Below, piece after piece: positions 8,095 to 45,045 of a stretch of DNA of 64,000 nt (its first letter is position 1; each line of letters begins with the position of its first letter). The stretch covers positions 4,278,001-4,342,000 of the forward strand of contig NW_027139581.1 in the NCBI RefSeq assembly GCF_035084215.1, given 5' to 3'. Source of the stretch: Heptranchias perlo. Its lineage: Eukaryota. A program made the position numbers and the translations under genes. Below the pieces are notes generated by a model. That model was not told where the DNA came from. It searched no databases and was given only the letters and a program-made list of their open reading frames with translations.

Positions 8095-10050
8095 AATGAT
8101 CATTATGGATACATGGAGGCTGATAATACAATGGTCACGATGGATACATGGAGGCTGATAATGCAATGGTCACTATGGATACATGGGGGCTGATAATGCA
8201 ATGGTCACTATGGATACATGGGGGCTGATAATGCAATGGTCACTATGGATACATGGAGGCTGATAATGCAATGGTCACGATGGATACATGGGGGCTGATA
8301 ATGCAATGGTCAATATGGATACATGGGGGCTGATAATGCAATGGTCACGATGGATACATGGGGGCTGACAATTCAATGGTCAGTAAGGATACATGGGGGC
8401 TGATAATTCAATGGTCAGTAAGGATACACGGGGGCTGATAATAGAATGAGCAGTAGGCATACATGGGGGCTGAAATACAATGGTCAGTGAGGATGCATGG
8501 GGGCTGATAATACAATGGGCAGTAGGCATACATGGGGGCTGATAATACAATGGGCAGTAGGCATACATGGGGGCTGAAATACAATGGTCAGTAAGGATAC
8601 ATGGGGGCTGATAATTCAATGGTCAGTAAGAGTACATTGGGGCAGATAATACAATGAGCAGTAGGCATACATGGGGGCTGATAATACAATGGTCAGTAAG
8701 GATACATGGGGACTGATAATACAATGGTCAGTAAGGATACAATGGGTCTGATATTTCAATGGTCAGTAAGGATACATGGGGACTGATAATACAATGGTTA
8801 GTAAGGATACAGAGGTTGGGGGTGGGGAGCTGATATTACAACGGCCATTAAGGAAACATTGGGCTGATAATACAATCGTCAAAAAGGTAAAATGAGGCTG
8901 AAATTAGAAAGGTTTGTAAGGATACATGGGGCTGATAGTACAATGGTCAGCAAGGGTAAATGGGGCTGATAGTACAATTGTCAGTGAAGATACATGGGGC
9001 TGATAATACAATGGTTACTCGGGATACATGGGCGTCGTGAACAATGGTCATTAATTATAGTTGGGGCTGATAATTCAATGGTCAGTAAGGATACATGGAG
9101 TGGATAATACAATGGTCATTAAGGATATATTTGGCTGATAATACAATGGACAGTAAGGATAAATCGGGGCGGATGACACAGTGATCAGTAAGGATACTGG
9201 GGACTGATAATACAATGGTCAGTAAGCAGACGTGGGGGCTAATAATACAATGGTCAGTAAGGATACATGTGGCTGATAATGCAGTGGTCAGGAAGGATAT
9301 ATGGGGCTGATAATACGTTGGTCAGTAAGGATACATGGGGGCTGATAAGGATACATGGGGCTGATAATACAGTGGTCAGTAAGGATACATGGGGCTAATA
9401 ATAGAGTGGTCAGTAAAGATACGTTGGGACTGATAATACAATGGTCAGTAAGGATCGATGGGGCTAATAATACAGTGGTCAGTACGGAAACATTGTGACG
9501 GATAATACAATGGTCAGTAAGGATACATGGACGCTGATAATACAATGGTCAGTAAGGATACATGGACGCTGATAATACAATGGTCAGTAAGGATACATGG
9601 GGGCTGATAATACAATGGTCAGCAAGGATACATGGGGGCTGACAATGCAGTGGTCAGTAAGGATACATTGGGAATGATAATACAATGGTCAGGAAGGATT
9701 CCTGGTGTCTGATAATACAGTGCTCGGTAAGGATCCATTTGGCTGATGAAACAATGGTCAGTAAGGATGCATTGGAATGTTCATACAATGATCAGTAAGT
9801 ATATGTGGTGCTGATAACAGAATGGTCAGTCAAGATACATGGGGTTGATAATATAATGGTCATTAAGGGTCCATGGGGCTGATAATACAATGGTCAGTAA
9901 TGATTGAAGGGACTGATAATACAATGGTCAGTAAGGTTACAGCAGACTAACTACATTGGTCAGTAAGGATTGAGGGGGCTGCTAACAGAATGGTCAGTAA
10001 GGATTGAGGGGCTGATAGTTCCCCAATTGTGAGCAAGCATACATGGGGCT
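8095..10050. repeat. 35-bp satellite array upstream of GPCR copy 1
   Basis: Consensus atggtcagtaaggatacatgggggctgataataca, with period 35 (tggatacatgg at 8106 and 8141). Confidence 0.95.
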
Positions 10051-14645: not shown

Positions 14646-15585
14646 TGTTGGCCAGAGGCTGCAGAAAACCTCTTGAGGTTAATTCGAATTGCGAACAAAG
14701 ACACTGACTTTTGAACTGAGGTAACCAGGAGTTCAGTCACTGGTCTGGACTGGCCAGAACCGGTTTGAATTAGCCATGCTTCTATGAGACAAAGGGTCTG
14801 TGATGAGACACCAGTCCTTATTTAGAAAAGGAGTAATGAGGTGATGCTACCTGACCCCTTGGAACGGAGCCAATCAGGGGATGACATCGGTCACTCCAGC
14901 AACTTTGAGCCAACCGGAGAAGACATCATCATTCGAAAAGACAAGACTTGGGTAAAACACTGAAGCATTGCGGGCTTGCTGCCAGTGTGTGTGTCTTTGT
15001 TTGTTTGTGAGCAAGAGAGAGATAGAGAGAGTGTGTGTGTGTGTGTGTGTGTGTGTTTTTGTTGGTGTGTGTTTGTCTGTGAGGGAGACTCTGGGAGACT
15101 CTGGAGACGAACCCTCGTGGAAGTGAGAACCTTCCGTCAGGGACGTAAAGACTACGTCAAGGACGTGGAGACGACGTCGGGAGTAAGAGGGAGAATTGCC
15201 TGGCCAGCAGTGTCTCTCCTGTCCGGGTAATATAATATCCTTTCTATTCTGTGACACTCTGGGAGTGTTGTCAGGAAAACCCAGTGGGTGTGCGTTTAAA
15301 GCCTAATACTCGGGGAGTATTAATAGAGAAACCTAGTGGATGTGCGTTTAAAGCTTAATACTCGGGGAGTATTACTCAGGAAACTTAGTGGGTGTGCGTT
15401 TAAATCCTAGTTTGAGTATAAACCTGTATAACCTGCTGTAAACTACATACCTATATCTAACTAGACGTATAAGCGGTATGTACATGATCTAATAATGTTA
15501 ATAAAGCGAATTGAGAATTAAGAGAGAATTGACTCTTCCTCTGTGTACTAAGCCAAAACCGTTAACCGGTGACTTCCGGTCAACA
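14646..15585 (+). repeat. 5' LTR (940 bp)
   Basis: Starts TGTTGGCCAG and ends CCGGTCAACA (imperfect inverted termini). AATAAA near 15500. Contains a (GT)n tract and a triplicated ~50-bp unit absent from the 3' LTR. Confidence 0.93.
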
Positions 15586-15589
15586 TCTT

Positions 15590-15611
15590 TGGCTTCCCTG
15601 GGTGGCCTCGA
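15590..15611 (+). promoter_or_regulatory. Primer-binding site complementary to tRNA-Asn
   Basis: tggcttccctgggtggcctcga compared with TGGCGTCCCTGGGTGGGCTCGA (complement of the vertebrate tRNA-Asn(GTT) 3' end) matches at 20/22 positions, 4 nt after the LTR. Confidence 0.85.
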
Positions 15612-15815
15612 GGATAAATCTCACCGTTGCGTCAGTGGGAGCCTCGAGGCGAACCGAATTTGGCAAAGTATACAGAGAACAGGAGTTAATTCATAGTTAA
15701 TAACGTAAGATGACGAATAAAGGGAAATCATAGAATCATAGAATCATAGAAGTTACAACATGGAAACAGGCCCTTCGGCCCAACATGTCCATGTCGCCCA
15801 GTTTATACCACTAAG

Positions 15816-18710
15816 CTAGTCCCAATTGCCTGCACTTGGCCCATATCCCTCTATACCCATCTTACCCATGTAACTGTCCAAATGCTTTTTAAAAGACAAA
15901 ATTGTACCCGCCTCTACTACTGCCTCTGGCTGCTCGTTCCAGACACTCACCACCCTTTGAGTGAAAAAATTGCCCCTCTGGACCCTTTTGTATCTCTCCC
16001 CTCTCACCTTAAATCTATGCCCCCTCGTTATAGACTCCCCTACCTTTGGGAAAAGATTTTGACTATCGACCTTATCTATGCCCCTCATTATTTTATAGAC
16101 TTCTATAAGATCACCCCTTAACCTCCTACTCTCCAGGGGAAAAATTCCCAGTCTGTCGAACCTCTCCCTGTAAGTCAAACCATCAAGTCCCGGTAGCATC
16201 CTAGTAAATCTTTTCTGCACTCTTTCTAGTTTAATAATATCCTTTCTATAATAGGGTGACCAGAACTGTACACAGTACTCCAAGTGTGGCCTCACCAATG
16301 CCCTGTACAACTTCAACAAGACATCCCAACTCCTGCATTCAATGTTCTGACCAATGAAACCAAGCATGCTGAATGCCTTCTTCTCCACCCTATCCACCTG
16401 TGACTCCACTTTCATGGAGCTATGAATCTGTCCTCCTCGATCTCTTTGTTCTATAACTCTCCCCAACGCCCTACCATTAACGGAGTAGGTCCTGGCCCGA
16501 TTCGATCTACCAAAATGCATCACCTCACATTTATCTAAATTAAACTCCATCTGCCATTCATCGGCCCACTGGCCCAATTGATCAAGACCCCGTTGCAATC
16601 CTAGATAACCTTCTTCACTGTCCACAATGCCACCAATCTTGGTGTCATCTGCAAACTTACTAACCATGCCTCCTAAATTCTCATCCAAATCATAATATAA
16701 ATAACAAATAACAGCGGACCCAGCACCGATCCCTGAGGCACACCGCTGGACACAGGCATCCAGTTTGAAAAACAACCCTCGACAACCACCCTCTGTCTTC
16801 TGTCGTCAAGCCAATTTTGTATCCAATTGGCTACCTCACCTTGGATCCCATGAGATTTAACCTTATGTAACAACCTACCATGAGGGACCTTGTCAAATGC
16901 TTTGCTGAAGTCCATGTAGACCACGTCGACTGCACAGCCCTCATCTATCTTCTTGGTTACCCCTTCAAAAAACTCAATCAAATTCGTGAGACATGATTTT
17001 CCTCTCACAAAACCATGCTGACTGTTCCTAATTAGTCCCTGCCTCTCCAAATGCCTGTAGATCCTGTCCCTCAGAATACCCTCTAACAACTTACCCACTA
17101 CAGATGTCAGGCTCACTGGTCTGTAGTTCCCAGGCTTTTCCCTGCCGCCCTTCTTAAACAAAGGCACAACATTTGCTACCCTCCAATCTTCAGGCACCTC
17201 ACCTGTAGCGGTGGATGATTCAAATATCTCTGCTAGGGGACCCGCAATTTCCTCCCTAACCTCCCATAACGTCCTGGGATACATTTCATCAGGTCCCGGA
17301 GATTTATCTACCTTGATGCGCGTTAAGACTTCCAGCACCTCCCTCTCTGTAATATGTACACTCCTCAAGACATCACTATTTATTTCCCCAAGTTCCCTAA
17401 CATCCATGCCTTTCTCAACCGTAAATACCGATGTGAAATATTCATTCAGGATCTCACCCATTTCTTGTGGTTCCGCACATAGATGACCTTGTTGATCCTT
17501 CAGAGGCCCTCCTCTCTCCCTAGTTACCCTTTTGCCCTTTATGTATTTGTAGAAGCTCTTTGGATTCACCTTTGCCTGATCTGCCAAAGCAATCTCATAT
17601 CCCCTTTTTGCCCTCCTGATTTCTCTCTTAACTCTACTCCGGCAATCTCTATACTCTTCAAGGGATCCACTTGATCCCAGCTGCCTATGCATGTCATATG
17701 CCTCCTTCTTCTTTTTGACTAGTGCCTCAATCTCCCGAGTCATCCAAGGTTCCCTACTTCTACCAGCCTTGCCCTTCACTTTATAAGGAATGTGCTTACC
17801 CTGAACCCTGGTTAACACACTTTTGAAAGCCTCCCACTTACAAGACGTCCCTTTGCCTGCCAACAGACTCTCCCAATCAACTTCTGAAAGTTCCTGTCTA
17901 ATACCATCAAAATTGGCCTTTCCCCAATTTAGAATTTTAACTTTTGGGCCAGACCAATCCTTCTCCATAGCTATCTTAAAACTAATGGAATTATGATCAC
18001 TTGTCCCAAAGTGATCCCTCACTAACACTTCTGTCACCTGCCCTTCCTTATTTCCCAAGAGGAGGTCAAGTTTTGCCCCCTCTCTAGTCGGGCCATCCAC
18101 ATACTGAATGAGAAATTCCTCCTGAATACTCAACAAATTTCTCTCCATCCAAGCCCCTAATGCTATGGCTGTCCCAGTCAATGTTGGGAAAGTTAAAGTC
18201 CCCTACTATTACCACCCTATTTTTCTTGCAGCTGTCTGTAATCTCCTTACATATTTGCTCCTCAATTTCCGGTTGACTATTTGGGGGTCTGTAGTACAAT
18301 CCTATCAAAGTGATCTCTCCCTTCTTAATTTTCAGTTCTCCCCATATAGACTCAGTGGGCGAACCCTCGGATATATCCCCTCTCACTACTGCCGTGATGT
18401 TCTCCCTAATCAAGAACGCAACTCCCCCTCCTCTCTTACCTCCTGCTCTATCTTTCCTATAGCATCTGTACCCTGGAACATTGAGCTGCCAGTCCTGCCC
18501 CTCCCTTATCCATGTTTCAGTAATAGCTATAACATCCCAGTCCCATGTACCCATCCATGCCCTGAGTTCATCTGCCTTGCCCATCAGACTTCTTGCATTG
18601 AAATAAATGCAGTTTAATCTAGACTTCCCCTGGTCTTTGCCCTGCTTTCTCAGACCATCTGTCCGGTCATGTTCTGTACACTCTCCCTTACTTCCTTTTG
18701 TTTCTGTCAC
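15816..18710 (-). pseudogene. CR1 ORF2 (endonuclease and reverse transcriptase), two frameshifts
   Basis: ORFs 18084-18917, 16673-18181 and 15816-16775 tile one ORF2. Confidence 0.9.
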
Positions 18711-18769
18711 CATTTTATTTCCCACTGACTTCCTGCATCGGTTCCCATCCCCCTGCCACATTAGTTTAA

Positions 18770-19708
18770 ACCCTCCCCAACAGCACTGGCAAACACTCCC
18801 CCTAGGACATTGGTTCCAGTCCTGCCCAGATGCAGACCGTCCAATTTGTGCTGGTCCCACCTCCCCCAGAACCGGTTCCAATGGCCCAGGAATTTGAATC
18901 CCTCCCTCTTGCACCATCTCTCAAGCCACGTATTCATCTTAGCTATCCTGTCATTCCTACTCTGACTTGCCCGTGGCACTGGTAGCAATCCTGAGATTAC
19001 TACCTTTAAGGTCCTACTCTTTAGTTTAACTCCTAACTCCCTAAATTCAGCTTGTAGGACCTCATCCTGTTTTTTACCTATATCGTTGGTGCCTATATGC
19101 ACCACGACAACTGGCTGTTAACCCTCCCCCTCCAGAATGTCCTGCAGCCGCTCCGAGACATCCTTGACCCTTGCACCAGGGAGGCAACATACCATCCTGG
19201 AGTCTCGGTTGCGTCCGCAGAAACGCCTGTCTATTCCCCTTACAATCGAGTCCCCTATCACTATAGCTCTGCCACTCTTTTTCTTGCCCTCCTGTGCAGC
19301 AGAGCCAGCCACGGTGCCATGAACCTGGCCACTGCCACCTTCCCCTGGTGAGCCATCTCCCCCAACAGTATCCAAAACGGTATACCTGTTTTGGAGGGAG
19401 ATGACCGCAGGGGACCCCTGCACTGCCTTCCTACTCTTCCTCTGTCTGTTGGTCACCCATTCACTATCTCCCTCAGTAATTTTTATCTGTGGTGTGACCA
19501 ACTCACTGAACGTGCTATCCACGACTTTCTCAGCATCGCGGATGCTCCAAAGTGAGTCCATCCGCAGCTCCAGAGCCGTCAAGCGGTCAAACAATAGCTG
19601 CAGCTGGACACACTTCCCGCAGGTGAAGGAATCAAGGATACAGGAAGGAGCCCTGAATTCCCACATCTCACAAGAGGAACATGACACGGCTCTGGGATCT
19701 CCTGCCAT
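18770..19708 (-). pseudogene. CR1 ORF1 (zinc finger, coiled coil and SGNH esterase), frameshifted near 19110
   Basis: ORFs 19118-19708 and 18761-19105 are consecutive pieces. Confidence 0.85.
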
Positions 19709-20155
19709 GACTTAACCCTTAAGTTAGCTTAACAACAACTGCAATGTCAAGAGAAAAAAAAGGAAAGAAAAACTACTTACCACTCCCTTTAAGGAGTTTA
19801 CTCCTTTAAATTGTTCTCAATTTAGAGAATGTTAACTACACTAGGGACCTTGATTCACTAAAAAATAAACGCTACTTCCTATACGACCTGCAGACCTTCC
19901 CTTTTACTTCAGTTTCTGTCGATAAGTCGAAATACTCACCTGAACCTACTCACCAATCAGGTGCCTCCCCTGTGTCGCGTCCCGATCTGATTCCTGACGT
20001 CACTTCGAACTCGGTCGCAGCTCCGCTCGGCTCGGCTCCTCTCAGCGCTCTGAAATCCCGCCTTTTATCGAACGCTCCCTCCGCTCGGCTCGGCTCCTCT
20101 CAGCGCTCTGAAATCCCGCCTTTTATCGGACGCTCCCTCCGCTCGGCTCGGCTCC

Positions 20156-21895
20156 CTGGGGACTTGGACTGTTTTAATTGGAAGGGACTCCTGCAAAATA
20201 TGTAATAGGGAAGTGGCCGCAATACGGGGAGTATGCGGGTCACATTGGAGACAAGGGAACGCCTGTTGGGGCGGTCCTTTGGAAAATTGCGCAAACAAAG
20301 ATGTCAGGTGGAAATTTAAAAAGATACAAAAATCTGTAGCGATCGGATGTTTACTTGAGGAATGGATAGAATGCCGACAGCAGGCTAGGAGAGAGAAAGA
20401 AAAGACTCGGAAAATCCAAGACGAATTAGGGGAAGAGAATAAAAAACTCCGTGAGGAGATCGCCCGCCTTAGTGAGAAGGTAACTGATCGACAGGGACAG
20501 AGAAGTGCAGATTTGATGCACATGAACCAATATCAGTTACAGTGCGAAAAATTGACTAATGAAAAGAATATGAGAGAGGGAGAAGTCCAAGCAGCTAAAG
20601 CTGAGGTGGAGAGATGGAAACAACAATGTGGTGATTTAAAAACTGCTATGAATGTGATTCACAGAGCAGCTCAGGAGAAGAGGAGTGGTACTGGCGATCA
20701 CACAACGTGTCAGAAAGTGATAGGGAGGCTGCAAGATCAGCTAGCCACACAGAGGGGCATATTGTGTGCTTTTGCACCCGGGAGAGGTGAAGAAAGTGGT
20801 TTCGGGGATGTAGATTGGGATGATTTAGCAGACAAGGCGGATAGATACAGCAGCGGTAATAGGGAACCTCCACTGGGGGACCCACCGCCAGCTTATGCTC
20901 CAGAGCAGAAAAAACCGTCTGCCCCAATGGCCCCCCTGGTAACTACAAGAGCACAGATGGGGGAAGATGGTCAGGATATGACATATTCCACCCCACTTGG
21001 GGTACAGGAACTGAGGGTTATTGCGAAAGATATTGGAACGTGTGCGCCCGGGGATGATCCCAGGGAGTTGTTCCTAGCAGTCAGGCAACAGAGAGCGATA
21101 CACGGCTTAGACGATGCTGAGGAAAGGAAATTAATCCCAATGTGCCTTCACCCACATATACACTCCGCCCTACCGGAGGAACAAAAACTTGGTGGAGGCA
21201 CGAATGAAGCCTTAAAGGACCAGATATTATCTGTCATGGGCGATAACAGAGGGGATCCAGTGGAGGCGCTGATGAGATGCTATCAAAGGAAAGGTGAACA
21301 CACCACTGTATTTTCGACTCGCATTTGGGCGGTATTTCAGGGGGTCTATAGTACAGACTTAGACAGGGATAATTTACAGCGGGAGGTTCGGAACCGATGG
21401 CTGAGAACACTAGTGTCGCATGGCACTGAGGAGTCGAGGAAGGCACTAGATCAGTTTGATCCCGCTGATGACACACATACGGAACCCTGGATAATTAGGA
21501 AGATGGTTAGAGTGTGGGAAAGGGAAATACCAAAACGATCCAAGGCATCCGGGGACAGAGCAATGCCTGTTAAAGATCAGGCGATAACCTGGAGAAATGA
21601 AGGGAGGGGACCTACTCAGGGGGAACCCCCTCCTGCTTATCAGATAGTGGGAAGAGGTAGAGGCAGAGGCAGACGAAACTTCTCGGGAAAGGGGAGAACT
21701 CAAGGCGAGGTGTCCAAATGCTATAACTGTGGCCAAGAGGGACACTTCGCAAGGGACTGCCCGAACCCGAGACGAGAGAATGCAGGTCGGGGAAGAAATC
21801 AGAGCCGACCCGTGGAAGGGCAGAATAGACCGAGTCCTCAGAGTGATACGATAGAAATATCACCGAGTTCCGGGTTGTACCCCGAACTGCAATGA
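20156..21895 (+). CDS. gag: Provirus gag (coiled coil, capsid-like region, CCHC zinc knuckle); true start probably ATG 15710, separated by the CR1
   Basis: CYNCGQEGHFARDC knuckle, RG-rich NC, PPPAY twice, PSAP and LYPEL. The frame stays open upstream of 20213 up to the CR1 junction. Confidence 0.85.
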   Translation: MGTWTVLIGRDSCKICNREVAAIRGVCGSHWRQGNACWGGPLENCANKDVRWKFKKIQKSVAIGCLLEEWIECRQQARREKEKTRKIQDELGEENKKLREEIARLSEKVTDRQGQRSADLMHMNQYQLQCEKLTNEKNMREGEVQAAKAEVERWKQQCGDLKTAMNVIHRAAQEKRSGTGDHTTCQKVIGRLQDQLATQRGILCAFAPGRGEESGFGDVDWDDLADKADRYSSGNREPPLGDPPPAYAPEQKKPSAPMAPLVTTRAQMGEDGQDMTYSTPLGVQELRVIAKDIGTCAPGDDPRELFLAVRQQRAIHGLDDAEERKLIPMCLHPHIHSALPEEQKLGGGTNEALKDQILSVMGDNRGDPVEALMRCYQRKGEHTTVFSTRIWAVFQGVYSTDLDRDNLQREVRNRWLRTLVSHGTEESRKALDQFDPADDTHTEPWIIRKMVRVWEREIPKRSKASGDRAMPVKDQAITWRNEGRGPTQGEPPPAYQIVGRGRGRGRRNFSGKGRTQGEVSKCYNCGQEGHFARDCPNPRRENAGRGRNQSRPVEGQNRPSPQSDTIEISPSSGLYPELQ

Positions 21896-24800
21896 CGATC
21901 TCAGGCCTCTCCGTTATGGGTGTGTGACGCGCGGTTGGATGACACGGGGAGACCCCTAGTGAATGGTAGGGTCGGAGGCCGCCATCTTACAATCCTTTGG
22001 GACACAGAGGGATCTCGAACCACCGTTAACACCACTCAGATCAATGACATAGATTGGAAAATTCAAAATAAAATTATTCTCAGTGGATTCACAGGGCATT
22101 CACAAGTGGGATATGTGAGTGTACCGTTGGAAGTCGGTGTGGGAGACATAGTGATAGAGCATTCAGTGGTCCTTATTGCATTACCTAGAGGACAAGAACA
22201 TATATCAGGGAGTGACTATATGGCCAAAGCGGGAATCTGCTTCGACCCTGTTAATTGTATAATTTGGCAAATGCCTTTGGGCATGGGCAGTATAAATCAC
22301 ACACTCGTCCCGGTGGGGGAATATCAGGATAGGATATGCACGATCGGGGAAATGTGGATAGAACCAGGAGAAATGAGTAACGATCGTGAAGTACAACAAA
22401 TTATTGCACAAAACTCAATAGTATTTGCCCGACATAAACATGATTGTGGGAAAATGACCGGGAGTGTGTGTATACAAGGTCCAGACCCCAAACCACAGAA
22501 TCAGTATGGTTTCCCAAAACAAGCAGAAGAAGAGATAGAGAAGGTGATACAGAGTCTGCTGCAGCAAGGGATATTAAGACCAATAGCTTCTACTAATAAC
22601 GCACCTATTTGGCTGGTGAGGAAACCCGACGGTAGCTGGCGACTCACGATTGACGACAGAGAATTAAATAAAGCCACCCCGCTAACAGCCCCTACTGTAG
22701 CAACCAGACCAGAGACAGTAGTTCGACAAAATGAGGGTGCGCAGTGTTCTACGGTTTTGGACATAAGTAACGGTTTTTGGTCTATTCCACTGGAGAAAGA
22801 ATGTCAATATAAATTTGCATTTACTTTCCAAGGACAGCAATATACATGGACCGCCCTGCCGCAGGGGTTTCACAATTCCCCGTCCATATTTCACCAACGC
22901 CTGAGGGAAGGGTTAAAAGGATTCTTAAGGCCTGAATGTTTAATGCAGTATGTAGACGACTTACTCCTACAAACTGAAACCAAGAAGGAACATTATCAAC
23001 TGCTAAGTGAATTACTGCAGTTGCTACATGACTTGGGATTAAAGATTAACCCTAAAAAAGCGCAGACCATGAAACAAAAAGTTACTTACTTGGGAATGAT
23101 TCTGACGCCGGGACTAAGGGACATTGACAAGCGAAGGATCGAGACGGTTGGCAGACTCCTTGTTCCGCGGGATGTAAAAGGGTTAAGGTCCTTCTTGGGG
23201 TTGGTGGGATATCGCAGGGACCATAATGATGGATTCGCCACAAAGGCGGCCCCGTTGATGGAATTATTCAAAAAGTATGTGGCCTGGGAGTGGAAAACAG
23301 AACACTCCGAGGCCATGACTGATCAAAAGCAAGCACCAGCTGCCGTGCCTGCTCTAAAAAGCCCAAATCCAACTGAGCCGTTTTCATTGGAGATGGCTAC
23401 CACAGACACCACCCTCTCGGCAGTTCTGTTACAGGAGACACATGGGAAATTACGACCAGTATCGTACGCTTCACGTATGCTCTCACCAGTAGAGCAGGGT
23501 TACACGGTGTGCCAAAGACACTTGCTAGCTGTCTTTTGGGCAGTGCAGCATTTTACCTATATAGTGGGACCAAACCCACTTACAATATTAACAGAACACA
23601 CCTCAGTACAGCTACTGTTAGATGGAAGGATTAAGGATGGTTCAGTTAGCCAAAATAGAATCGCTAGATGGACATTGTTGCTGCAAGGGAGAAATATAAC
23701 CGTAAAGGGGGTGAAAACCACCACTGTGTTAGCAGACAACTTAGTTTATCAGGGAGAGAAACATGAGTGTCAATTGATGATAGCAAATGACCCCAAGGGC
23801 CCATTTGTATCAAAACAAAAGGGAGGGGGTAAGACGGGGCCTGAAAGCAGAAAGACAAAGGAAACAGGAAAGGAAGAACCCTATTTTAAATGTTTTGTGG
23901 ATGGCTCTTCATCAGTACAGGATGGGGAAAGGAGAACTGGCTGTGGGATATACATGGAGGATGACCACGGACGGGAAAGATTTAGTGCGGCTCTGAAATT
24001 ACCTAACACTATGAGTGCGCAGGCAGCAGAACTAGCAGCCGTCGCATATGTGGTTGGTCACCCGGAATATTTTCCGCCCAGATCAGTCATATATTCTGAT
24101 AGCATGTATGTTTGTAATAGCCTCACAGAACATTTGCCCCTATGGGAAGCGAGAGGATTTGTCTCAGCGGATGGAAGACCCCTTCCGGCAGCCCCGCTAT
24201 TACGGTACATCTTTGAAGAAGCACAGGGGAAAGGATATGGGGTCACAAAAGTGAAAGCTCATTCAGAACTATCTCCCGAAGGGAACAGGAAAGCTGATGA
24301 ACTAGCTAAACGAGGTGCTGTAAGTGGACAGGAATGGCAGCCACCGATTGGGGAAATCGGAGGCCAGAAAGAGAAGCAGGTCAAAATAATGGATTTAACG
24401 GAGGAGCAAAAGAAAGACGGAGAATTAAAAAAACTAATAGAAGGAGCAGAATCAGACACATACAAAAGGCACAAGGGGGTCGATATTCAAGACGGAGTGG
24501 TTTTGTGTGAAGGAAAATTTGTGGTGCCAGAGGGGGGACGAAACCAAATAATCCACTGATACCTTGACTTATGGGGACATAAAGGGACGGAGAGCACCCT
24601 AGATAGGATGAAGGAGGTGTGCTGGTGGCCCGGAATGACAGGTGACGTGGAACACAATGTCAAGAATTGTTTGATCTGTGCACAACACAACCCCGATAGA
24701 AATATTAAGAAAGGGGCCCTCCGACATACTAGACCAGTTGAAGGGCCTTGGACTAATTTACAGATAAACTGTGTACGACCCCTGCCCCCCACTCCAGGAG

Positions 24801-25855
24801 GATACAAGTACATTCTAGTAATAGTGGATACCTTCACCAAATGAGTGGAAGCTTTTCCGACCAGAACAAACACAGTCAAAGTTACTGCGCAAATTCTATT
24901 CGAAAAGGTGTTTACCCGTTGGGGTTTACCCCGAAGCATGGAATCGGATCAGGGAACACATTTTACAGCCCAAGTAATGCAAGATGTTGTGACCCTTTTT
25001 GGGGTCAGACAAAGATTTCACATACCCTATAGACCACAGTCTAGTGGAATTGTGGAAAGAATGAATCGGACATTGAAAAACATGACAGCCATAATGGTGC
25101 AGCAGCACAAGACAACCTGGCAAGTGGTTCTGCCCTTTGTGCTGATGATAGTCAGGAATACCGTGGCTTCATCAACAGGCTACACTCCTTATAAACTCAT
25201 GAGAGGAAGGGGCATGAGTGGAATGGAGGTGTTGGTAGGTTTGGATTTGTCTGAACCCGAGGTAGATCACATTATATCAGAAAAATGGGTACAACAGCTA
25301 GTGGAAGCAGTAAAAGAAGCAAATTATGTAGCCGCTCACCGACAGGGAAAGAAGAAACAGCAAAGCAAGACTTATTTAGATGCAAAAGCCAGCCCGACAG
25401 AGTTGAGCCCCGGACAGAGAGTAATGATTAGAATACAACAGCCCACCTCATTCTTGAGTCCAAAATTTGCCGGTCCCTATGAGATAGTGGACAAAGCTAG
25501 CCCATCTGTATACAGGATATTAACGGCACCAGATAAGAGTGGCTGGTACCACATTAATCAGCTAAAGTTGGTAGGAGAAAAACAAGATAATCACCATTGG
25601 CATGTGCTGCTCGATGCTAACGATGTTCCGAATTCTGAAGGTCAGGGAGATCAAGAACAGGACCAGCTACAGGTCCAAGAGGAGGTGATCGAAAACAAAT
25701 TTGAAACTGTCCGTTCACATACAGAGGCGAATCCAGGAAAAAAAAAAGAAAGAAAAATAAAACAAAAAGGGGGAATAAGTGGGTTAGAAGAAACGGACGG
25801 TTCGAATCTGAAACAAATTGGGAACAGGATATGGACGGTCTGGCTCAGTATATAG
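21896..25855 (+). pseudogene. pol: Provirus pro-pol (protease, RT, tether, RNase H, integrase), in frame with gag, two premature stops
   Basis: LWDT(E)GS protease, LPQGF and YVDDLL RT, a degenerate RH/tether (RPVSYASR), an RNase HI fold (FVDGSS, SAQAAEL, YSDS, KVKAH, GNRKAD) and IN with H..CLIC, VDTF, SDQG, VERMN and GPY. Stops at 24557-24559 and 24842-24844, with no frameshift. Confidence 0.93.
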
Positions 25856-25938
25856 AGAGACTGGACTTATGATAGGACTTAAAAGAAACTGTAAATAAGA
25901 GCAGAAATTACACTTGTTTATTACAGGTCCAGCCGAGA

Positions 25939-28308
25939 ATGAAGGGGATGATGCATTTTGTTGCTATCGGATTGAACATCATCAGAACTGCGGTTGAACC
26001 TGCCTCGGAGCCGTCACGACGAATGAACGTGCCTGAAGCAGTGTCGACGGCGGAGGGATATCCCGAGACTAGGGACAACTTTGCTCTGCAGAATAAGACA
26101 GTCCGAACCAACAAAGGGAAACGAGAGGATTTAAATTTGTATTGTACGGGAGTGGATGGGTTAGCGTGCGCGGGAAAGACTTTGGGTATACCGGAGGGAG
26201 CGGCAGTACAGTTTTCATGCAACACAGTTCTAGAGGTGACATTGTTGGTAATCCCAGAGGGAAAAATCATTAATTAATTTGCGGGTCCATTTATGGAGCG
26301 ACCATCAGGGAGCACACCGATGTAAATATTGACTGGGGTAGTGACTTATACCGGAAATATTACGTTGGGGCGGTGTTTCATATTCCCCGGCACGGAAGCA
26401 ATTTGACCTACCCGTTAAAAAGAGTTCATAACGTGGGCAAGTATCATGAGGGTACTTGGATATCTTTGAGCAGCCCACCATCTCATGCTTTTGTAATGGA
26501 CGGTGCTGAGAAAGGGGTAGATTTGTCAAAGTGTCACCAAGGAGGGAATCACTGGGCCTGTCCAGAAGAGATAACGAGACAGAAACTTATTAATTGCGGG
26601 TTCAGTACTTATGAAAATTGTTCATTGTCCATTTTGCCGGTTAACAACCAGTCCTTTTTACAACACGCCCTTGTGGGACAAACGTATTACATAGCCACAG
26701 CGGCTATGAACTATAAAAAAGTATGGAAACAGTGCCCTCTGGAAGGACACAATGTGGCCATTAACAATGTGACCTCAGACCTGGTTGTCGGTGGACAAGT
26801 TCTGCCTAAGCCAATAATGAGGTTGGTAATAAACGAAAACCTCACAGTCCAACGGACCGATATAGACCAAGATCTGCGGAAATATGTTCCTACCGAACTA
26901 CCACCCATTCCGCACCTGACGACAGATTGGACGCAAATAGCAGAGGAAGCCAATGAGATAATTCATCAATGGACGAAACACACTAAAATAATTAAAACTC
27001 ATGCTGATAAAGCAGATGAACTGCTACAGGACCCCAGGTTCTGTGATAAGTTTTGGAATTAGAATCATAGAATCATAGAATCATAGAAGTTTACAACTTC
27101 GGCCCAACATGTCCGAAGGGCCTGTTTCCTTCGGACATGTTGGGCCGAAGGAAACAGGCCCTTCGGCCCAACATGTCCATGTCGCCCAGTTCATACCACT
27201 AAGCTAGTCCCAATTGCCTGCACTTGGCCCATATCCCTCTATACCCATCTTACCCATGTAACTGTCCAAATGCTTTTTAAAAGACAAAATTGTACCCGCC
27301 TCTACTACTGCCTCTGGCAGCTCGTTCCAGACACTCACCACCCTTTGAGTGAAAAAATTGCCCCTCTGGACCCTTTTTTTATCTCTCCCCTCTCACCTTA
27401 AATCTATGCCCCCTCGTTAAAGACTCCCCTACCTTTGCGAAACGATTTTGACTATCTACCTTATCTATGCCCCTCATTATTTTATAGACTTCTATAAGAT
27501 CACCCCTAAGTCTCCTACTCTCCAGGGAAAAAAGTCTCAGTCTATCCAACCTCTCCCTATAAGTCAAACCATCAAGTCCCGGTAGCATCCTAGTAAATCT
27601 TTTCTGCACTCTTTCTAGTTTAATAATATCCTTTCTATAATAGGGTGACCAGAACTGTACACAGTATTCCAAGTGTGGCCTTACTAATGTCTTGTACAAC
27701 TTCAACAAGACATCCCAACTCCTGTATTCAATGTTCTGACCAATGAAACCAAGCATGTCGAATACCTTCTTCACCACCCTATCCACCTGTGACTCCACTT
27801 TCAAGGAGCTATGAACCTGTACTCCTAGATGTCTTTGTTCTATAACTCTCCCCAACGCCCTACCATTAACGGAGTAGGTCCTGGCCCGATTCGATCTACC
27901 AAAATGCATCACCTCACATTTATCTAAATTAAACTCCATCTGCAATTCATCGGCCCACTGGCCCAATTGATCAAGATCCCGTTGCAATCCTATATAACCT
28001 TCTTCACTGTCCACAATGCCACCAATCTTGGTGTCATCTGAAAACTTACGAACCATGCCTCCTAAATTCTCATCCAAATCATTAATATAAATGACAAATA
28101 ACAGCGGACCCAGCACCGATCTTGGGGATCTAATGTTCAAATACATCCATGGATCAGGATGTTATCACATGCTGCTGTGGTTGTGATTGTATGTGCATTA
28201 ATACTTGTCATATTCAATGTATATCAGCTCAGAAGGTGGAAACATGAAATTTTGCAACAATTGAGTGTTTGTGCAATAATGAAACAGAAAAAGCGATTAT
28301 CAATATAA
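25939..28308 (+). pseudogene. env: Provirus env-like glycoprotein (~430 aa reconstructed), frameshift near 26273 and CR1 insertion 27061-28121
   Basis: A splice acceptor ttgtttattacAG (25926) precedes ATG 25939. The ectodomain is Cys-rich with N-glycosylation sequons. After removing the CR1, DKFWN joins WGSNVQIHPWIRMLSHAAVVVIVCALILVIFNVYQLRRWK (TM and basic tail), with the stop at 28306-28308. Confidence 0.8.
27061..28121 (-). mobile_element. 5'-truncated young CR1 inserted in env
   Basis: Near-identical to 15726-16735 and has an (ATTCTATG)n tail. Confidence 0.95.
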
Positions 28309-28488
28309 GGGCACTGTGTGAATTATATTTTATACGCTTCATTTTTGTATTTTTTCGACAACCATTTATATTTTTTCTTTTACCATATCATATCGCGGAT
28401 GTAACGTGCCCATTGTGGGACAATGACAACCTCAGGAGTGGTACACAGAAAGGGATTATAATGATCCTAAGATAAGCATCTTTGGATC

Positions 28489-28501
28489 AAAAGGGGGGAG
28501 A
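28489..28501 (+). promoter_or_regulatory. Polypurine tract
   Basis: aaaaggggggaga immediately before the 3' LTR. Confidence 0.9.
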
Positions 28502-29245
28502 TGTTGGCCAGGGGCTGCAGAAAACTACTGAGTATAATACGAATTGCGAACAACGACACTGAATTTTCAACTGAGGTGACCTGGAGTTCAGTCACTGGTC
28601 TAAACTGGCCAGAACCGGTTTGAATTCGTTCCGCTTCTTAGAGGGACAAAGGAGCTTTGATGAGACACCAGGCCTTATTTAGAAAAGGAGTAATGAGGTG
28701 ATGCTACCGAGCCCCTTGGAACAGAGCCAATCAGGGGATGACACTGACCACTCCAGCAACTTTAAGCCAACCGGAGCAGACAGCATCATTCGAAAAGACA
28801 GGCTTGAAGTTAAAACTGAAGAATTGCAGGCTTGGTGCCAGTGTGTTTGTGAGGGCGACTCCAGAGACCAACTATCGCGGAAGTAGGGACCCTACGTCAG
28901 GGACGTAGAGACTACGTCAGGGATGTAAAGACGACGTCGAGAGAGAGAGAACGAATCGCCTGGCCAGCGTTATCTCTCCTTTCCGGGTAATATAATATAC
29001 TTTCTATTCTGTGACCACTCAGGGATGTGTTAGTCAGGGAAACCTAGTGGGTGTGCGTTTAAATCCTAGTTTGAGTATAAAACTGTATAACCTGCTGTAA
29101 AATGCATGCCTATATCTAACCAGACGTATAAGCGGTATGTACATGATCTAATAACGTTAATAAAGCGAATTGAGAATTAAGAGGGAATTGACTCTCCTGC
29201 TCTGTGTCCTAAGCCAAAACAGTTACCGGTGACTTCCGGTCAACA
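28502..29245 (+). repeat. 3' LTR (744 bp)
   Basis: TGTTGGCCAG...CCGGTCAACA, colinear with the 5' LTR. Confidence 0.93.
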
Positions 29246-36677: not shown

Positions 36678-39600
36678 AATGGTCAGTAAGGAGACATGGG
36701 GGCTGATAATATAATGGTCAGTAATGATACATGGGGGCTGATAATATAATGGTCAGTAAGGATACATGGGGACTGATAATACAATGGTCAGTAATGATAC
36801 ATGGGGGCAGATAATACAATGGTCAGTCAGGATACATGGGGACTGATAATACAATGGTCAGTAAGGATACATGGGGACTGATAATACAATGGTCAGTTCG
36901 GGTCCAGGGGGACTGATAATACAATGGTCAGTAAGGGTACACGGGGGCTGATAATATAATGGTCAGTAAGAACACATTTGGTGTGATAATGCAATGTCCT
37001 GTACGGATACATGTGGGTGACAACTGAATGTTCCGTAAGGATTCTTGAATGCAGATAATGCAATGATCAGTAAGGAAACACGGAGTTTGCTAATGCAATG
37101 GTCAGAAAGAACACATTTGTGTGATAATGTAACGGTCAGTATGAACACAGCGGGATGATAATACAGCAGTCAGGAAGAACACCTGGTGTTTATCCGACAA
37201 TGGTCAGTAAGGATACGTGGGGTGTGATACTGCCATGGTCAGTAACTGTAAATGGGGCAGATAATATACTGGTCACTAATAATGTGTAGGGGTGATAATA
37301 CAACGGTCAGCACGGATACTTGAGTTGTGATAATGCAATGGTCGATAAGGATACTTGGATGCAGATGATACAATGGTCAATTATGATACTTGAGTGTTAT
37401 AATACAATGGGCGGTAAGGATACATGGGGGTTGATAATATAATGATCAGTAAGTATACATGGGGTCTGATATTACAATGGTCAGTAAGTATACATGGGGT
37501 CTGATTTTACAATGGTCAGTATGCATACATGGGGGCTGATAATACAATGGTTACGGAGGATACATGGGGGCTGATAATACAATGGTTTCAAATGATGCAT
37601 GGGGCCTGATAGTACAATGGTTACTAAGGATACATGGTGGCTGAAAATACAATGGCCAGTAAGTGTACATGGGGACTGATAATACAATGGTCAGTAAGGA
37701 TACATGAGGGCTGATAATACTATGGCCCGTAAGTAAAGATGGGGATTGATAATACAATGTTCAGTAAGGATACGTGTGGGCCGATAATACAATGGTCAGT
37801 GTGGATACATGGGGGCTGATAATATAATGGTCAGGAAGTATACATGGGAGCTGATAATATAACGGTCAGCAAGTATACATGAGGGCTGATAATGCAATGG
37901 TCAGTAAGGATACATGGGGCCTGATAATACAATATTTACCAAGGATACATGGGGGCTGATAATATCATGGTTACAAAGGATGCATGTGGCCTGAAAATAT
38001 AATGGTTACGAAGGATACATGGGGCCTGATAATTCAATGGTCAGTAAGGATGCATGGGGCCTGATAGTACAATGGTTACTAAGGATACATGGGGGCCGAT
38101 AATACAGTGGTCAGTCTGTAGACATGGGGGCCGATAATACAATGGTCAGTAATTATCCACGGGGAGTATTAATACAATGGTCAATAAGGATACAAGGGTG
38201 CTGACAATACAATGGCCAGTAGGTAAACACGGCGGCTGATAATACAATGGTCAGTAAGTTTACACGGCGGCTGATAATAGAATGGTCAGTAAGTGTACAC
38301 GGGGGCTGACAATACAATGGCCAGTACGTATACATGGGGGCTGATAATACAATAGTCTTGAAGTACACATGGGAGTGATAATAGAATGGTCCGTACGTAT
38401 ACATTGGGGATAATAATACAATGCTCAGTAAGTATACATGGCGGCTGATCATACAATGGTCAGCAAGTATACATGGGGGTTGATAATACAATGGTCAGTA
38501 AGTATACATGGGGGTTGATAATACAATGGTCAGTCAGTATACATGGGGGTTGATAATACAATGGTCAGTAAGGATACATGGGGGCTGATAATATCATGAT
38601 CAGTAAGTACATATGAGGGCTGATAATACAATGGTCTTTAAGTATACATGGGTGATGATAATAAAATGGTCTTTAAGTATACATGGGAGTGATAATACAA
38701 TGGTCAGTAAGTATACATGGGGGCTGATAATACAATGGTCAGTAAGTGTACATGTGGACTGATAATACAATGGTCAGTAAGTGTACATGTGGACTGATAA
38801 TACACTGGTCAGTAAGTGTACATGTGGACTGATAATACAATGGTTAGTAAGTGTACATGTGGACTGATAATACACTGGTCAGTAAGTGTACATGTGGACT
38901 GATAATACACTGGTCAGTAAGTGTACATGTGGACTGATAATACAATGGTCAGTAAGTGTACATGTGGACTGATAATACACTGGTCAGTAAGTGTACATGT
39001 GGACTGATAATACAATGGTCAGTAAGTGTACATGTGGACTGATAATACACTGGTCAGAAAGTGTACATGTGGACTGATAATACACTGGTCAGTAAGTGTA
39101 CATGTGGACTGATAACACAATGGTCAGTAAGTGTACATGTGGACTGATAATACACTGGTCAGTAAGTGTACATGTGGACTGATAATACACTGGTCAGTAA
39201 GTGTACATGTGGACTGATAATACAATGGTCAGTAAGTGTACATGTGGACTGATAATACAATGGTCAGTAAGTGTACATGTGGACTGATAATACACTGGTC
39301 AGTAAGTGCACATGTGGACTGATAATACACTGGTCAGTAAGTGTACATGTGGACTGATAATACACTGGTCAGTCAGTATACATGGGGGCTGATAATAAAA
39401 TGGTCAATAAGTATACGCCGCGGCTGATCATGCAATGGTCAGTAAGTGTACATGTGGACTGATAATACAATGGTCAGTAAGTTTACATGTGGACTGATAA
39501 TACAATGGTCAGTAAGTGTACATGTGGACTGATAATACACTGGTCAGTAAGTGTACATGTGGACTGATAATACACTGGTCAGTAAGTGTACATGTGGACT

Positions 39601-40635
39601 GATAATACAATGGTCAGTAAGTGTACATGTGGACTGATAATACACTGGTCAGTAAGTGTACATGTGGACTGATAATACAATGGTCAGTAAGTGTACATGT
39701 GGACTGATAATACACTGGTCAGAAAGTGTACATGTGGACTGATAATACACTGGTCAGTAAGTGTACATGTGGACTGATAACACAATGGTCAGTAAGTGTA
39801 CATGTGGACTGATAATACACTGGTCAGTAAGTGTACATGTGGACTGATAATACACTGGTCAGTAAGTGTACATGTGGACTGATAATACAATGGTCAGTAA
39901 GTGTACATGTGGACTGATAATACAATGGTCAGTAAGTGTACATGTGGACTGATAATACACTGGTCAGTAAGTGCACATGTGGACTGATAATACACTGGTC
40001 AGTAAGTGTACATGTGGACTGATGATACACTGGTCAGTCAGTATACATGGGGGCTGATAATAAAATGGTCAATAAGTATACGCCGCGGCTGATCATGCAA
40101 TGGTCAGTAAGTGTACATGTGGACTGATAATACAATGGTCAGTAAGTTTACATGTGGACTGATAATACAATGGTCAGTAAGTGTACATGTGGACTGATAA
40201 TACAATGGTCAGTAAGTGTACATGTGGACTGATAATACACTGGTCAGTAAGTGCACATGTGGACTGATAATACACTGGTCAGTAAGTGTACATGTGGACT
40301 GATAATACACTGGTCAGTCAGTATACATGGGGGCTGATAATAAAATGGTCAATAAGTATACGCCGCGGCTGATCATGCAATGGTCAGTAAGTGTACATGT
40401 GGACTGATAATACAATGGTCAGTAAGTTTACATGTGGACTGATAATACAATGGTCAGTAAGTGTACATGTGGACTGATAATACACTGGTCAGTAAGTGTA
40501 CATGTGGACTGATAATACAATGGTCAGTAACTGTACATGTGGACTGATAATACACTGGTCATAAGTGTACACGTGGACTGATAATACAATGGTCAGTAAG
40601 TATACATGGAGTCTGATAATGCAATGGTCAGTGAG
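36678..40635. repeat. 35-bp satellite array upstream of GPCR copy 2, with higher-order repeats
   Basis: Same family as 8095-10050. A homogeneous variant atggtcagtaagtgtacatgtggactgataataca dominates from ~38740. Confidence 0.95.
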
Positions 40636-42025
40636 GAAGCATGAGGCAGATCTTGCCAGAAATTGTTCGGAGCGTCGAATCAACGTTCACCGCCGCTCCT
40701 TCGATTTAAATTAACGAAATTCCTTCCGGCGGGCTCTTCGGCGTCGAATTGTTTGAATTGGACCATGAATCCAATCCTGCTCTGTCCCCCGAGCCTCTGA
40801 GCAGCGTTGGTTGCCGCGGCTGGAAATGTCTGTGAGAGGAGAAGACACGCCCACAAAATCTGTCAGGAAGTGAAGTCACGCCCACAGCTCCAGCCTTCAT
40901 TGCTCAAAGAGCTGAGCAGACTTCTCATTGAAAATTAGTGTTCTTCATGCAATTGTAAATTCAAAATAAACTTTTTATAAAAAGCCGAATTTAAATGCAT
41001 TTTTAAAAAGCAGTGGAAACTTAAATAAACAGTCTTTAAAAAGGAGTGTAAAATAAAATGAACTGTTTTTGAAAAGGCTGTTTTTACACTGAGAAAAATG
41101 ATGGAACAGCAAAAGATGAATGAGAAGAGGTGAAACAAATGTTGTGATGAAGACCTCTCCACACTCCTCAATGAGGTTGATGTGAGGCTTCGGCGGCTTC
41201 TGGGGAACGGAAGTCTCGGGCGGCACAGAAAGTTAGCGTGTTGGTGTGGAAGGAGGTGGCACAGGTTCTGAGCACGAACAGCACCGTGTCACGGAGAGCG
41301 GAACAGGGCCGCAAAAAATCAATGATTTAATGCAGTCGGCCAGGATGTATAGAGAGTTTTAGAAATTCAAAAGTTCAGATTTAAATGAGCTGAGTTTTAC
41401 CAATGCAGAAACACAGGTTGTTTCTGGGTGGTGTGGTCAAGGTTCAATCTAATGGCAACTGGTCGTAAAACTCAGTTGCCATTGTGGACGGGCCTCACTA
41501 AATGCCTTTAGAGATCTTTTATCCCAACTCCAGAGATTTGAGATGTTAAATTACAATTAGTGAATTGGACCCTGTCTCCAAACCCCCAACTTATCTCTCT
41601 CACAAACAAGCACGAACTGATTTTTATTGTTTAATGTCATGTCGTGTAAAATGGCTTTTAACAACCGTGAGAGGTCGAAGACCGGCGGCGGTTCAGCCTG
41701 TATGAGGGAGATGACCGAGCACGAAGAAAGGGCCACTCAGCTGCAGGGCATCACTTCCAGTTTCGTGCCTGGTGTCCGATCAGACACTGGAGCGAGGAAA
41801 GGTGAGTTTCACATTCCTCTATTGGCCAGCTGCATGTTTAAAAGCTGCGTGTTGTCTGAAGGATGGGAAAAGGAGATTAGAGTCTGACCATGCTCGTGCA
41901 GCGTGTGGGCGTCTGTGATGTGACCGATGAACATGCTTCACCAGTGGAACATTTTGTTCTTCCGTCCCACAGGTTCACAGCCGTCTGAGGACACTCGGGC
42001 TGCAGAAGGTGGTGAGTCGGCGGCG

Positions 42026-45000: not shown

Positions 45001-45045
45001 TGCAGAGGGTGATGGTGTTAGCACTGCAGAGTGTGATGATGTTTC
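42026..45045. repeat. 21-bp minisatellite, ~140 copies
   Basis: Unit gcagag(a/g)gtgatggtgtttg(g/t)gct. Confidence 0.97.

Follow-up and report, generated by a model that had tools for sequence, protein, structure and literature searches.

A dead shark provirus with a canonical, likely snakehead retrovirus-like polymerase and with integrase, RNase H and envelope parts resembling those of lokiretroviruses

The stretch of DNA analysed here, called the window, comprises 64,000 nt of the forward strand of Heptranchias perlo contig NW_027139581.1 (4,278,001-4,342,000) and contains an endogenous retrovirus (ERV), which a preliminary description had assigned to a loki-like lineage of a cartilaginous fish. 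Our analysis did not bear out that assignment. The explanation that we regard as likely is that the element is a dead, probably recombinant copy of a high-copy shark ERV. Its reverse transcriptase (RT) would be canonical and likely akin to that of snakehead retrovirus (SnRV; clade Huo, broadly class III), and its integrase (IN), RNase H and F-type envelope protein (Env) likely represent an ancestral state shared with lokiretroviruses. These loki-like parts are most simply read as retained from an ancestor. The host itself was confirmed as a shark: RAG2 was 100% identical to that of Heptranchias perlo, 81-84% to that of six other elasmobranchs, 74% to that of a chimaera and at most 59% to that of bony vertebrates.

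The references for the trees were obtained as follows (L numbers denote fetched loci or contigs, G000 is our code for the Heptranchias perlo assembly searched, and C numbers are its contigs). Three lokiretrovirus contigs (L047-L049) were fetched by the loki motif; their RTs resembled by eye those of Loki-Lca and Loki-Bpe when set against Dataset S2, and two of the three contigs encoded a PF00523-type Env. SnRV was reached through an RT hit (P0017) that matched the SnRV RT in the Dataset S2 alignment and led to a 10.7-kb viral contig (L026). Motif scans supplied the foamy, alpha/beta/delta-type and caulimovirus/Gypsy-type rows, whose labels reflect motif and tree position instead of a name. Near-duplicate, surplus and unlabelled hits were removed before the trees were built, leaving 107 of 223 RT rows in one tree; 59 rows were chosen for the mixture-model tree, and 14 were removed in another. 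The mixture-model tree of RT joined to the tether (the degenerate first RNase H) was run in its quick version.

In all six RT-containing trees, the element fell on the side of canonical Retroviridae, with lokiretroviruses as the sister of the canonical group (98, 96, 100/99, 100/94, 100/94 and 97/95). Thus, in the RT+tether tree, the element lay within canonical Retroviridae (100/99), lokiretroviruses lay outside (100/100), and the Gypsy/caulimovirus outgroup was split off with 100/100; in the RT-alone tree, the element was within canonical Retroviridae with 100/94. In support of that, the approximately unbiased (AU) test rejected the union of the element with lokiretroviruses (p=0.0024) and, on RT+tether, also the union of the whole group of its relatives with them (p=0.037). 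The RT was 50% identical to that of SnRV, 38% to that of lokiretroviruses and 35% to that of foamy viruses, and it carries the motif LPQG, as in canonical retroviruses, where the lokiretroviruses of Dataset S2 have PFG. The best matches of Pol as a whole were ERVs of a frog, coelacanth and turtle, at 35-50% identity; these ERVs make up the group of its relatives, and PMC4977317 names such hosts for the SnRV-like clade. When viral contigs were searched by RT, no relative came up, and the loki motif found none there either. With an RT inside the clade of foamy viruses and orthoretroviruses, and with long terminal repeats (LTRs), a primer-binding site (PBS), gag, pol, env and a polypurine tract, the element has the marks of canonical Retroviridae.

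Other assignments fell away on similar grounds. As the preliminary description had held, the element is neither a Ty3/Gypsy element (Metaviridae), as it has a dual RNase H and an RT outside Gypsy, nor a member of the Spumaretrovirinae. It shares with foamy viruses the YVDD motif of RT, an F-related Env (PMC11468914) and the same loose RNase H group, but its RT is in a separate clade, its Gag has a CCHC knuckle, and its gag and pol share one frame. Another non-class I/II retrovirus with env, described in PMC4299795, is ERV4 from crocodilians and turtles; however, it differs in its 5-bp target-site duplication (TSD) and in the lack of a zinc finger and a GPF/Y motif, whereas the shark family has a 4-bp TSD, a CCHC knuckle and GPY.

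The polymerase thus characterized is likely near that of SnRV, judging by sequence comparison. In the RT-alone tree, the group of the element and its relatives was the sister of SnRV (89/80), and their union was not rejected by the AU test (p=0.33). Moreover, both have a tether followed by RNase H, a large Env with a multibasic cleavage site, a Gag with a coiled coil and one CCHC knuckle, and pol in frame after one stop; the likeness of Gag and of the gag-pol arrangement is descriptive, since BLASTP similarity between the two Gags was confined to the knuckle. They differ in the gag-pol junction (UAG-G in SnRV, UGA-CGG in the shark family) and in the primer, which is tRNA-Asn in the shark family and tRNA-Arg in SnRV. 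In addition, the IN and Env of the shark family are nearer to those of lokiretroviruses, its RNase H groups with lokiretroviruses and foamy viruses, and no accessory open reading frames (ORFs) were seen after its env. The presence of this clade in cartilaginous fish is not new. SnRV-like ERVs, among the closest known systems to the element, have been reported from the chimaera Callorhinchus milii as CmiERV lineage I (PMC4422223); according to PMC6001957, clade Huo infects every major lineage of vertebrates, and clade III accounts for most chondrichthyan ERV RTs (PMC11089739).

Outside the RT, the domains of pol leaned the other way. Identities to SnRV and lokiretroviruses were, respectively, 28 and 43% for the tether, 34 and 30% for RNase H, and 35 and 47% for the IN core. 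In the IN tree, lokiretroviruses nested among the relatives of the element (83/92), and the AU test rejected the union of the group with SnRV (p=0.031) but not with lokiretroviruses (p=0.36). In the quick RNase H tree, the element grouped with lokiretroviruses and foamy viruses (SH-aLRT, a likelihood-ratio branch support, 93), whereas the quick tether tree kept lokiretroviruses outside (81) even though the tether is nearer to theirs in identity. The RT and IN phylogeny proposed in the preliminary description as a check of the loki assignment therefore gave a divided answer, the RT being canonical and the IN leaning to lokiretroviruses. The succession of tether and RNase H is common to all retroviruses and Odin, and is not diagnostic of lokiretroviruses. 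Neither are YVDD, the CCHC knuckle and an F-like Env, because SnRV has the tether and the first two of these, and the Envs of foamy and walleye viruses match the F-like model as well.

Env was also nearer to that of lokiretroviruses than to that of SnRV. The central part of env is missing from the window copy, which by itself does not reveal that Env is F-like; the F-like env of the preliminary description was recovered on a longer copy (L015), which has an RKKR site, an F-like fusion peptide, heptad repeats and a transmembrane segment. A profile built from 30 aligned Env sequences, namely the query and 29 out of 37 hits, scored 57 and 58 bits on two lokiretrovirus Envs versus 13.5 on the SnRV Env, and none of 100 shuffles of each scored as high; pairwise similarity to the lokiretrovirus Env had E=5e-6. 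In a protein atlas, Env was assigned to F0 clusters at 0.92, and its structural model (predicted local distance difference test, pLDDT, 72) matched F of respiratory syncytial virus (E 5e-11), parainfluenza virus (1e-10) and henipavirus, as well as foamy Env in BFVD (E=6e-5). Short-word, Pfam and PDB sequence searches with Env found nothing, and a PDB profile match to the membrane-proximal region of gp41 was weak (E=0.026) and was not used. The nearest named relatives of Env (7 named of 10 looked up) were from Heterodontus (84%), Scyliorhinus, Mustelus, Chiloscyllium and a frog. In the literature searched, which left out most subscription papers, no report of an F-like Env in SnRV-like ERVs was found.

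Several further observations concern Env. The Envs of walleye dermal sarcoma and epidermal hyperplasia viruses matched the F-like model in BFVD (E 2e-8 and 4e-9, with low TM-scores), and our literature search found no paper on a likeness of walleye retrovirus Env to F. About 220 residues with a second basic site precede the F-like part (L015:7435-8097), and Pfam gave no match there; one shark homologue is labelled Ig-like. At least two further shark ERV families (L138, L139 and L140, on G000:C35, C44 and C8) have an Env of the same kind (about 26% identical) and canonical RTs that are 58-65% identical.

Measured against known lokiretroviruses (PMC7947760), the element has in common with them the dual RNase H, an F-like Env with RXKR, fusion peptide, coiled coil and transmembrane segment, and an Env homologous by profile. 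In contrast, its RT lies outside theirs, its Gag carries a CCHC knuckle and showed no similarity by BLASTP to the lokiretrovirus Gag tested (the one lokiretrovirus Gag scanned had no CCHC match), it lacks the long insert between protease and RT that is found in L047-L049, and its Env is longer at the N terminus by about 240 residues. Some lokiretroviruses have an smc-like additional gene; in the fetched copies, no additional ORF was evident from LTR to gag, although no search was aimed at smc.

Several results weigh against the explanation that we prefer. Its references comprise three lokiretroviruses (two for IN, RNase H and Env) and one SnRV, with no identified ERV-L, fish foamy virus, Odin or CGIN1. 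On RT alone, the AU test did not reject the union of the group with lokiretroviruses (p=0.077). The RT+tether trees placed SnRV across a branch from the group (86/95; mixture model 98), and three further RT-containing trees did not settle where SnRV stands; a place beside SnRV is therefore insecure. Support in the trees of IN and RNase H is weak, and these trees do not distinguish inheritance from recombination. As for Env, its BLASTP similarity to the SnRV Env was weak (E=0.016), the Pfam model PF00523 did not match the shark-family Env, and TM-scores of the Env model to F were only 0.3-0.45.

The placement of SnRV bears directly on whether the group instead branches off separately at the base of canonical retroviruses, forming no clade with SnRV and needing a name of its own. 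In the mixture-model RT+tether tree, a 14-member group (97) stood outside SnRV, foamy viruses and orthoretroviruses together (98), a similar grade was seen in a second RT+tether tree, and the IN rejected union with SnRV. We nevertheless think such a branch rather unlikely. RT alone favours the SnRV sister relationship, which the AU test allowed, and the SnRV-like clade as published already covers coelacanth and amphibian elements and is possibly an ancestral branch (PMC4977317). This reading also overlaps with a canonical, SnRV-like element that retained ancestral parts, and differs from it in naming.

The conflict between the AU results of RT and IN, and the nesting of lokiretrovirus IN among relatives of the element, could also mean that the lineage is recombinant, either because a canonical SnRV-like RT was anciently joined to a loki-derived IN and env, or because a loki backbone took up a canonical RT. 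Swaps of retroviral RNase H and IN domains have been reported (PMC7947760), and the two kinds of virus met in one host, as lokiretrovirus relics are present in the same genome. However, the tether, which lies beside RT, keeps lokiretroviruses outside despite its nearer identity to them, which fits slow change from an ancestor. Furthermore, F-like Envs occur in foamy viruses (PMC11468914) and walleye viruses, and therefore no loki donor is needed. Taken together, this makes a recombinant origin improbable in our judgement, and retention of ancestral IN, RNase H and Env is preferred.

That the element is itself a lokiretrovirus, or belongs to their sister group, has been largely refuted and seems to us highly improbable: its IN, tether and Env are nearer to those of lokiretroviruses than to those of SnRV, its termini and the 4-nt spacer between LTR and PBS resemble by eye those of Loki-Bsp, and the RT-only AU test left room for the union, but the six trees, the two AU rejections and the LPQG motif speak against it, and its RT region shares only 29-36% identity with the true lokiretrovirus relics found in this genome.

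These relics were found by searching the shark genome with lokiretrovirus RT, which gave one match at 57% over a background of about 46% or less; DNA and Env searches added more.
G000:C6:98784599-98785349 (L130), C5:87752045-87752601 (L149), C7:26844442 (L151) and C7:26901643 (L152): lokiretrovirus RT relics.
G000:C31:14368503 (L153), C25:25053786 (L154) and C2:95020644 (L155): degraded loki-like pol pieces adjoining loki-like env pieces (3/3 fetched).
The four degraded RT fragments formed a clade with lokiretroviruses (4/4 tested, 100/100), L130 being 53-57% identical to lokiretrovirus RT and 31% to that of the shark family. The env pieces of L153-L155 were 27-41% identical to lokiretrovirus Env, and three shark Env queries gave no match there. 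All of these relics are on chromosome-scale contigs and full of stops. A lokiretrovirus IN search of the genome gave nothing above 52% identity among 150 scored matches, and no well-preserved lokiretrovirus IN was seen. A fourth loki-like env match was noted on C8. By the published screen of 2021, lokiretroviruses were found in 0/6 chondrichthyan genomes (Wang and Han 2021, PMC7947760), and no report of them in cartilaginous fish turned up in the literature searched, from which most subscription papers were missing. Thus, the element does not bear out the extension of the lokiretrovirus host range suggested in the preliminary description, whereas other, degraded loci in this genome appear to do so.

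A broader possibility, which we put forward tentatively and would not yet back, is that the lineage of shark, frog, coelacanth and turtle elements is the earliest canonical branch and still carries the Env, IN and RNase H of the ancestor that it shared with lokiretroviruses. Retroviral Env would in that case have been acquired a single time, as an F-type fusogen, with the gp41-type arising later, and sharks would have old lokiretrovirus relics of their own besides. The Odin paper (PMC9040795) prefers the opposite, that retroviral env was gained twice: canonical and loki Envs are said there to share no detectable similarity, and two independent retrovirus origins are therefore preferred. A canonical-RT retrovirus with a loki-homologous Env makes that view directly testable, and the link accords with the structural link of foamy Env to F (PMC11468914). 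If true, the shared Env would point to one ancestral retroviral envelope, and the relics would close the cartilaginous-fish gap in the lokiretrovirus host range. The points of note are accordingly the Env link and the separate relics, and the family offers many copies with less than 4% LTR divergence in one genome, along with relatives in several sharks.

The window copy has the following parts, all given in window positions.
14646..15585, + strand: 5' LTR, 940 nt, TG...CA, nearest to one of the LTR subtypes of the family.
15590..15607, + strand: PBS for tRNA-Asn(GTT), starting 4 nt past the LTR, with 2 mismatches.
15710..15730, + strand: opening gag codons, separated from the remaining gag by a long interspersed nuclear element (LINE).
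15731..20153, - strand: inserted non-viral LINE of 4.4 kb, presumably CR1-type, with endonuclease and RT.
20154..21895, + strand: remainder of gag, with a coiled-coil region, the CCHC knuckle, a frameshift near 20312-20330 and an in-frame TGA at its end (21893-21895).
20480..20481, + strand: likely splice donor GT within gag, from a contig junction and copy comparison.
21896..25872, + strand: pol, in frame with gag, encoding protease, RT, tether, RNase H and IN with a GPY-type C-terminal domain.
25925..25926, + strand: likely splice acceptor AG, 12 nt upstream of the env ATG at 25939.
25939..27060, + strand: first part of env, with about 1 kb gone near 26313-26353 relative to longer copies.
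27061..28121, - strand: another insertion of that LINE, truncated and with 96% identity to the first one.
28122..28308, + strand: end of env, with the membrane anchor and a short basic tail.
28490..28501, + strand: polypurine tract.
28502..29245, + strand: 3' LTR, 744 nt, TG...CA, of a subtype other than that of the 5' LTR, without a TSD.

A retroviral provirus with paired LTRs, gag, pol, env, PBS and polypurine tract is therefore present, as first described. The Pfam domain order also agreed with that description: a CCHC knuckle (PF00098, E=1e-9), RT, the RT_RNaseH tether (E=1e-22), RNase_H (E=7e-19), and the IN zinc finger and core. YVDD is at 22949, and all four acidic motifs of the complete RNase H were located (23897, 24026, 24092 and 24290). 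The claim that the element is nearly reconstructable was not confirmed; comparison with 12 other copies identified the two insertions and the env gap. Besides the two LINEs and the frameshift in gag, the copy has lesions in pol (a changed protease motif, stops at 24557 and 24842, and a frameshift near 25740-25770), and the segment missing from env held the cleavage site, the fusion peptide and the first heptad repeat. Over 735 aligned nt, the two LTRs share 89% identity, each is nearest to a different subtype (93-94% versus 94-95%), and the flanks of the provirus are LINE pieces in opposite orientation. With these gene lesions, LTRs of two subtypes, no TSD and oppositely oriented flanks, the window copy is dead, and two proviruses probably recombined to give it. 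Since the LTR pair mixes two subtypes, dating from it was rejected.

The family to which this copy belongs is large. An RT search of the shark genome yielded 2391 candidates and at least 150 copies, 150/150 of the matches scored being 78-100% identical. LTR identity was 96.7-99.1% in seven of eight copies with both LTRs in view, and an exact 4-bp TSD was found in six of the eight, in line with integration that would duplicate 4 bp of target. The PBS, 4 nt after the LTR, matched in other copies the genomic tRNA-Asn(GTT), called by ARAGORN in 3/3 loci scanned, which upholds the tRNA-Asn assignment of the preliminary description; reverse transcription would thus be primed by tRNA-Asn. The tRNA-Asn 3' stretch had 176 exact genome matches, on C23 (52 of the 100 listed) and several small contigs. 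Pol was in frame after the gag TGA in 10/11 copies, and Gag-Pol may be made by read-through of this one UGA. At the junction (window 21893-21898), UGA is followed by CGG in 9/11 copies. UGA-CGG is a read-through context of alphaviruses and plant viruses, and UAG is used in SnRV and gammaretroviruses.

Env, in turn, may be translated from a spliced RNA. A GT donor in gag was joined to an AG before env in one contig of one run, whose RNA status was guessed. Of 11 copies examined, nine were measured, and in six of these the donor is 354 nt past the gag ATG; in 3/3 copies checked, the acceptor precedes the env ATG by 12 nt. With this spacing, translation of the spliced RNA would yield 118 residues of Gag joined in frame to Env. 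The splicing part of the explanation is weakened by its reliance on a single contig with 26 letters on the short side, and support for the spliced env of the preliminary description is weak. The element is covered by three runs whose RNA status was likewise guessed; this says nothing of its expression level. Cleavage of the predicted Env by furin at RKKR would free the fusion peptide, and fusion may proceed by a class I mechanism like that of paramyxovirus F, as the predicted fold suggests. The window copy itself likely arose when two proviruses recombined, and it received two LINE insertions.

No copy with gag, pol and env all open was present among 13 inspected. The fusion-peptide segment of env was found in about 46 loci (51/150 rows), compared with 150/150 rows (at least 150 loci) for RT and for the env end, and contig depth in DNA runs falls over this part of env. 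As most copies lack it, later spread was likely inside the genome. A 1.5-kb pol deletion, covering RNase H and most of IN, is common to many copies (L019-L022, L024 and L137), which make up a non-autonomous subfamily. Contigs of four other organisms (runs X5, X8, X9 and X12) covered the internal region in 29-30 of 30 bins at 80% likeness or more, and env deletions like those of the shark family were seen in the runs of three of them. A second copy of the window provirus (L016, G000:C1414:1215500-1225499), 99% identical and with both LINE insertions, lies 3 Mb away on the same contig and represents a segmental duplication or a duplicated haplotype. Long tandem arrays with units of 34-35 nt and 24 nt occupy window positions 8095-10017, 36678-40632 and 42022-45044.

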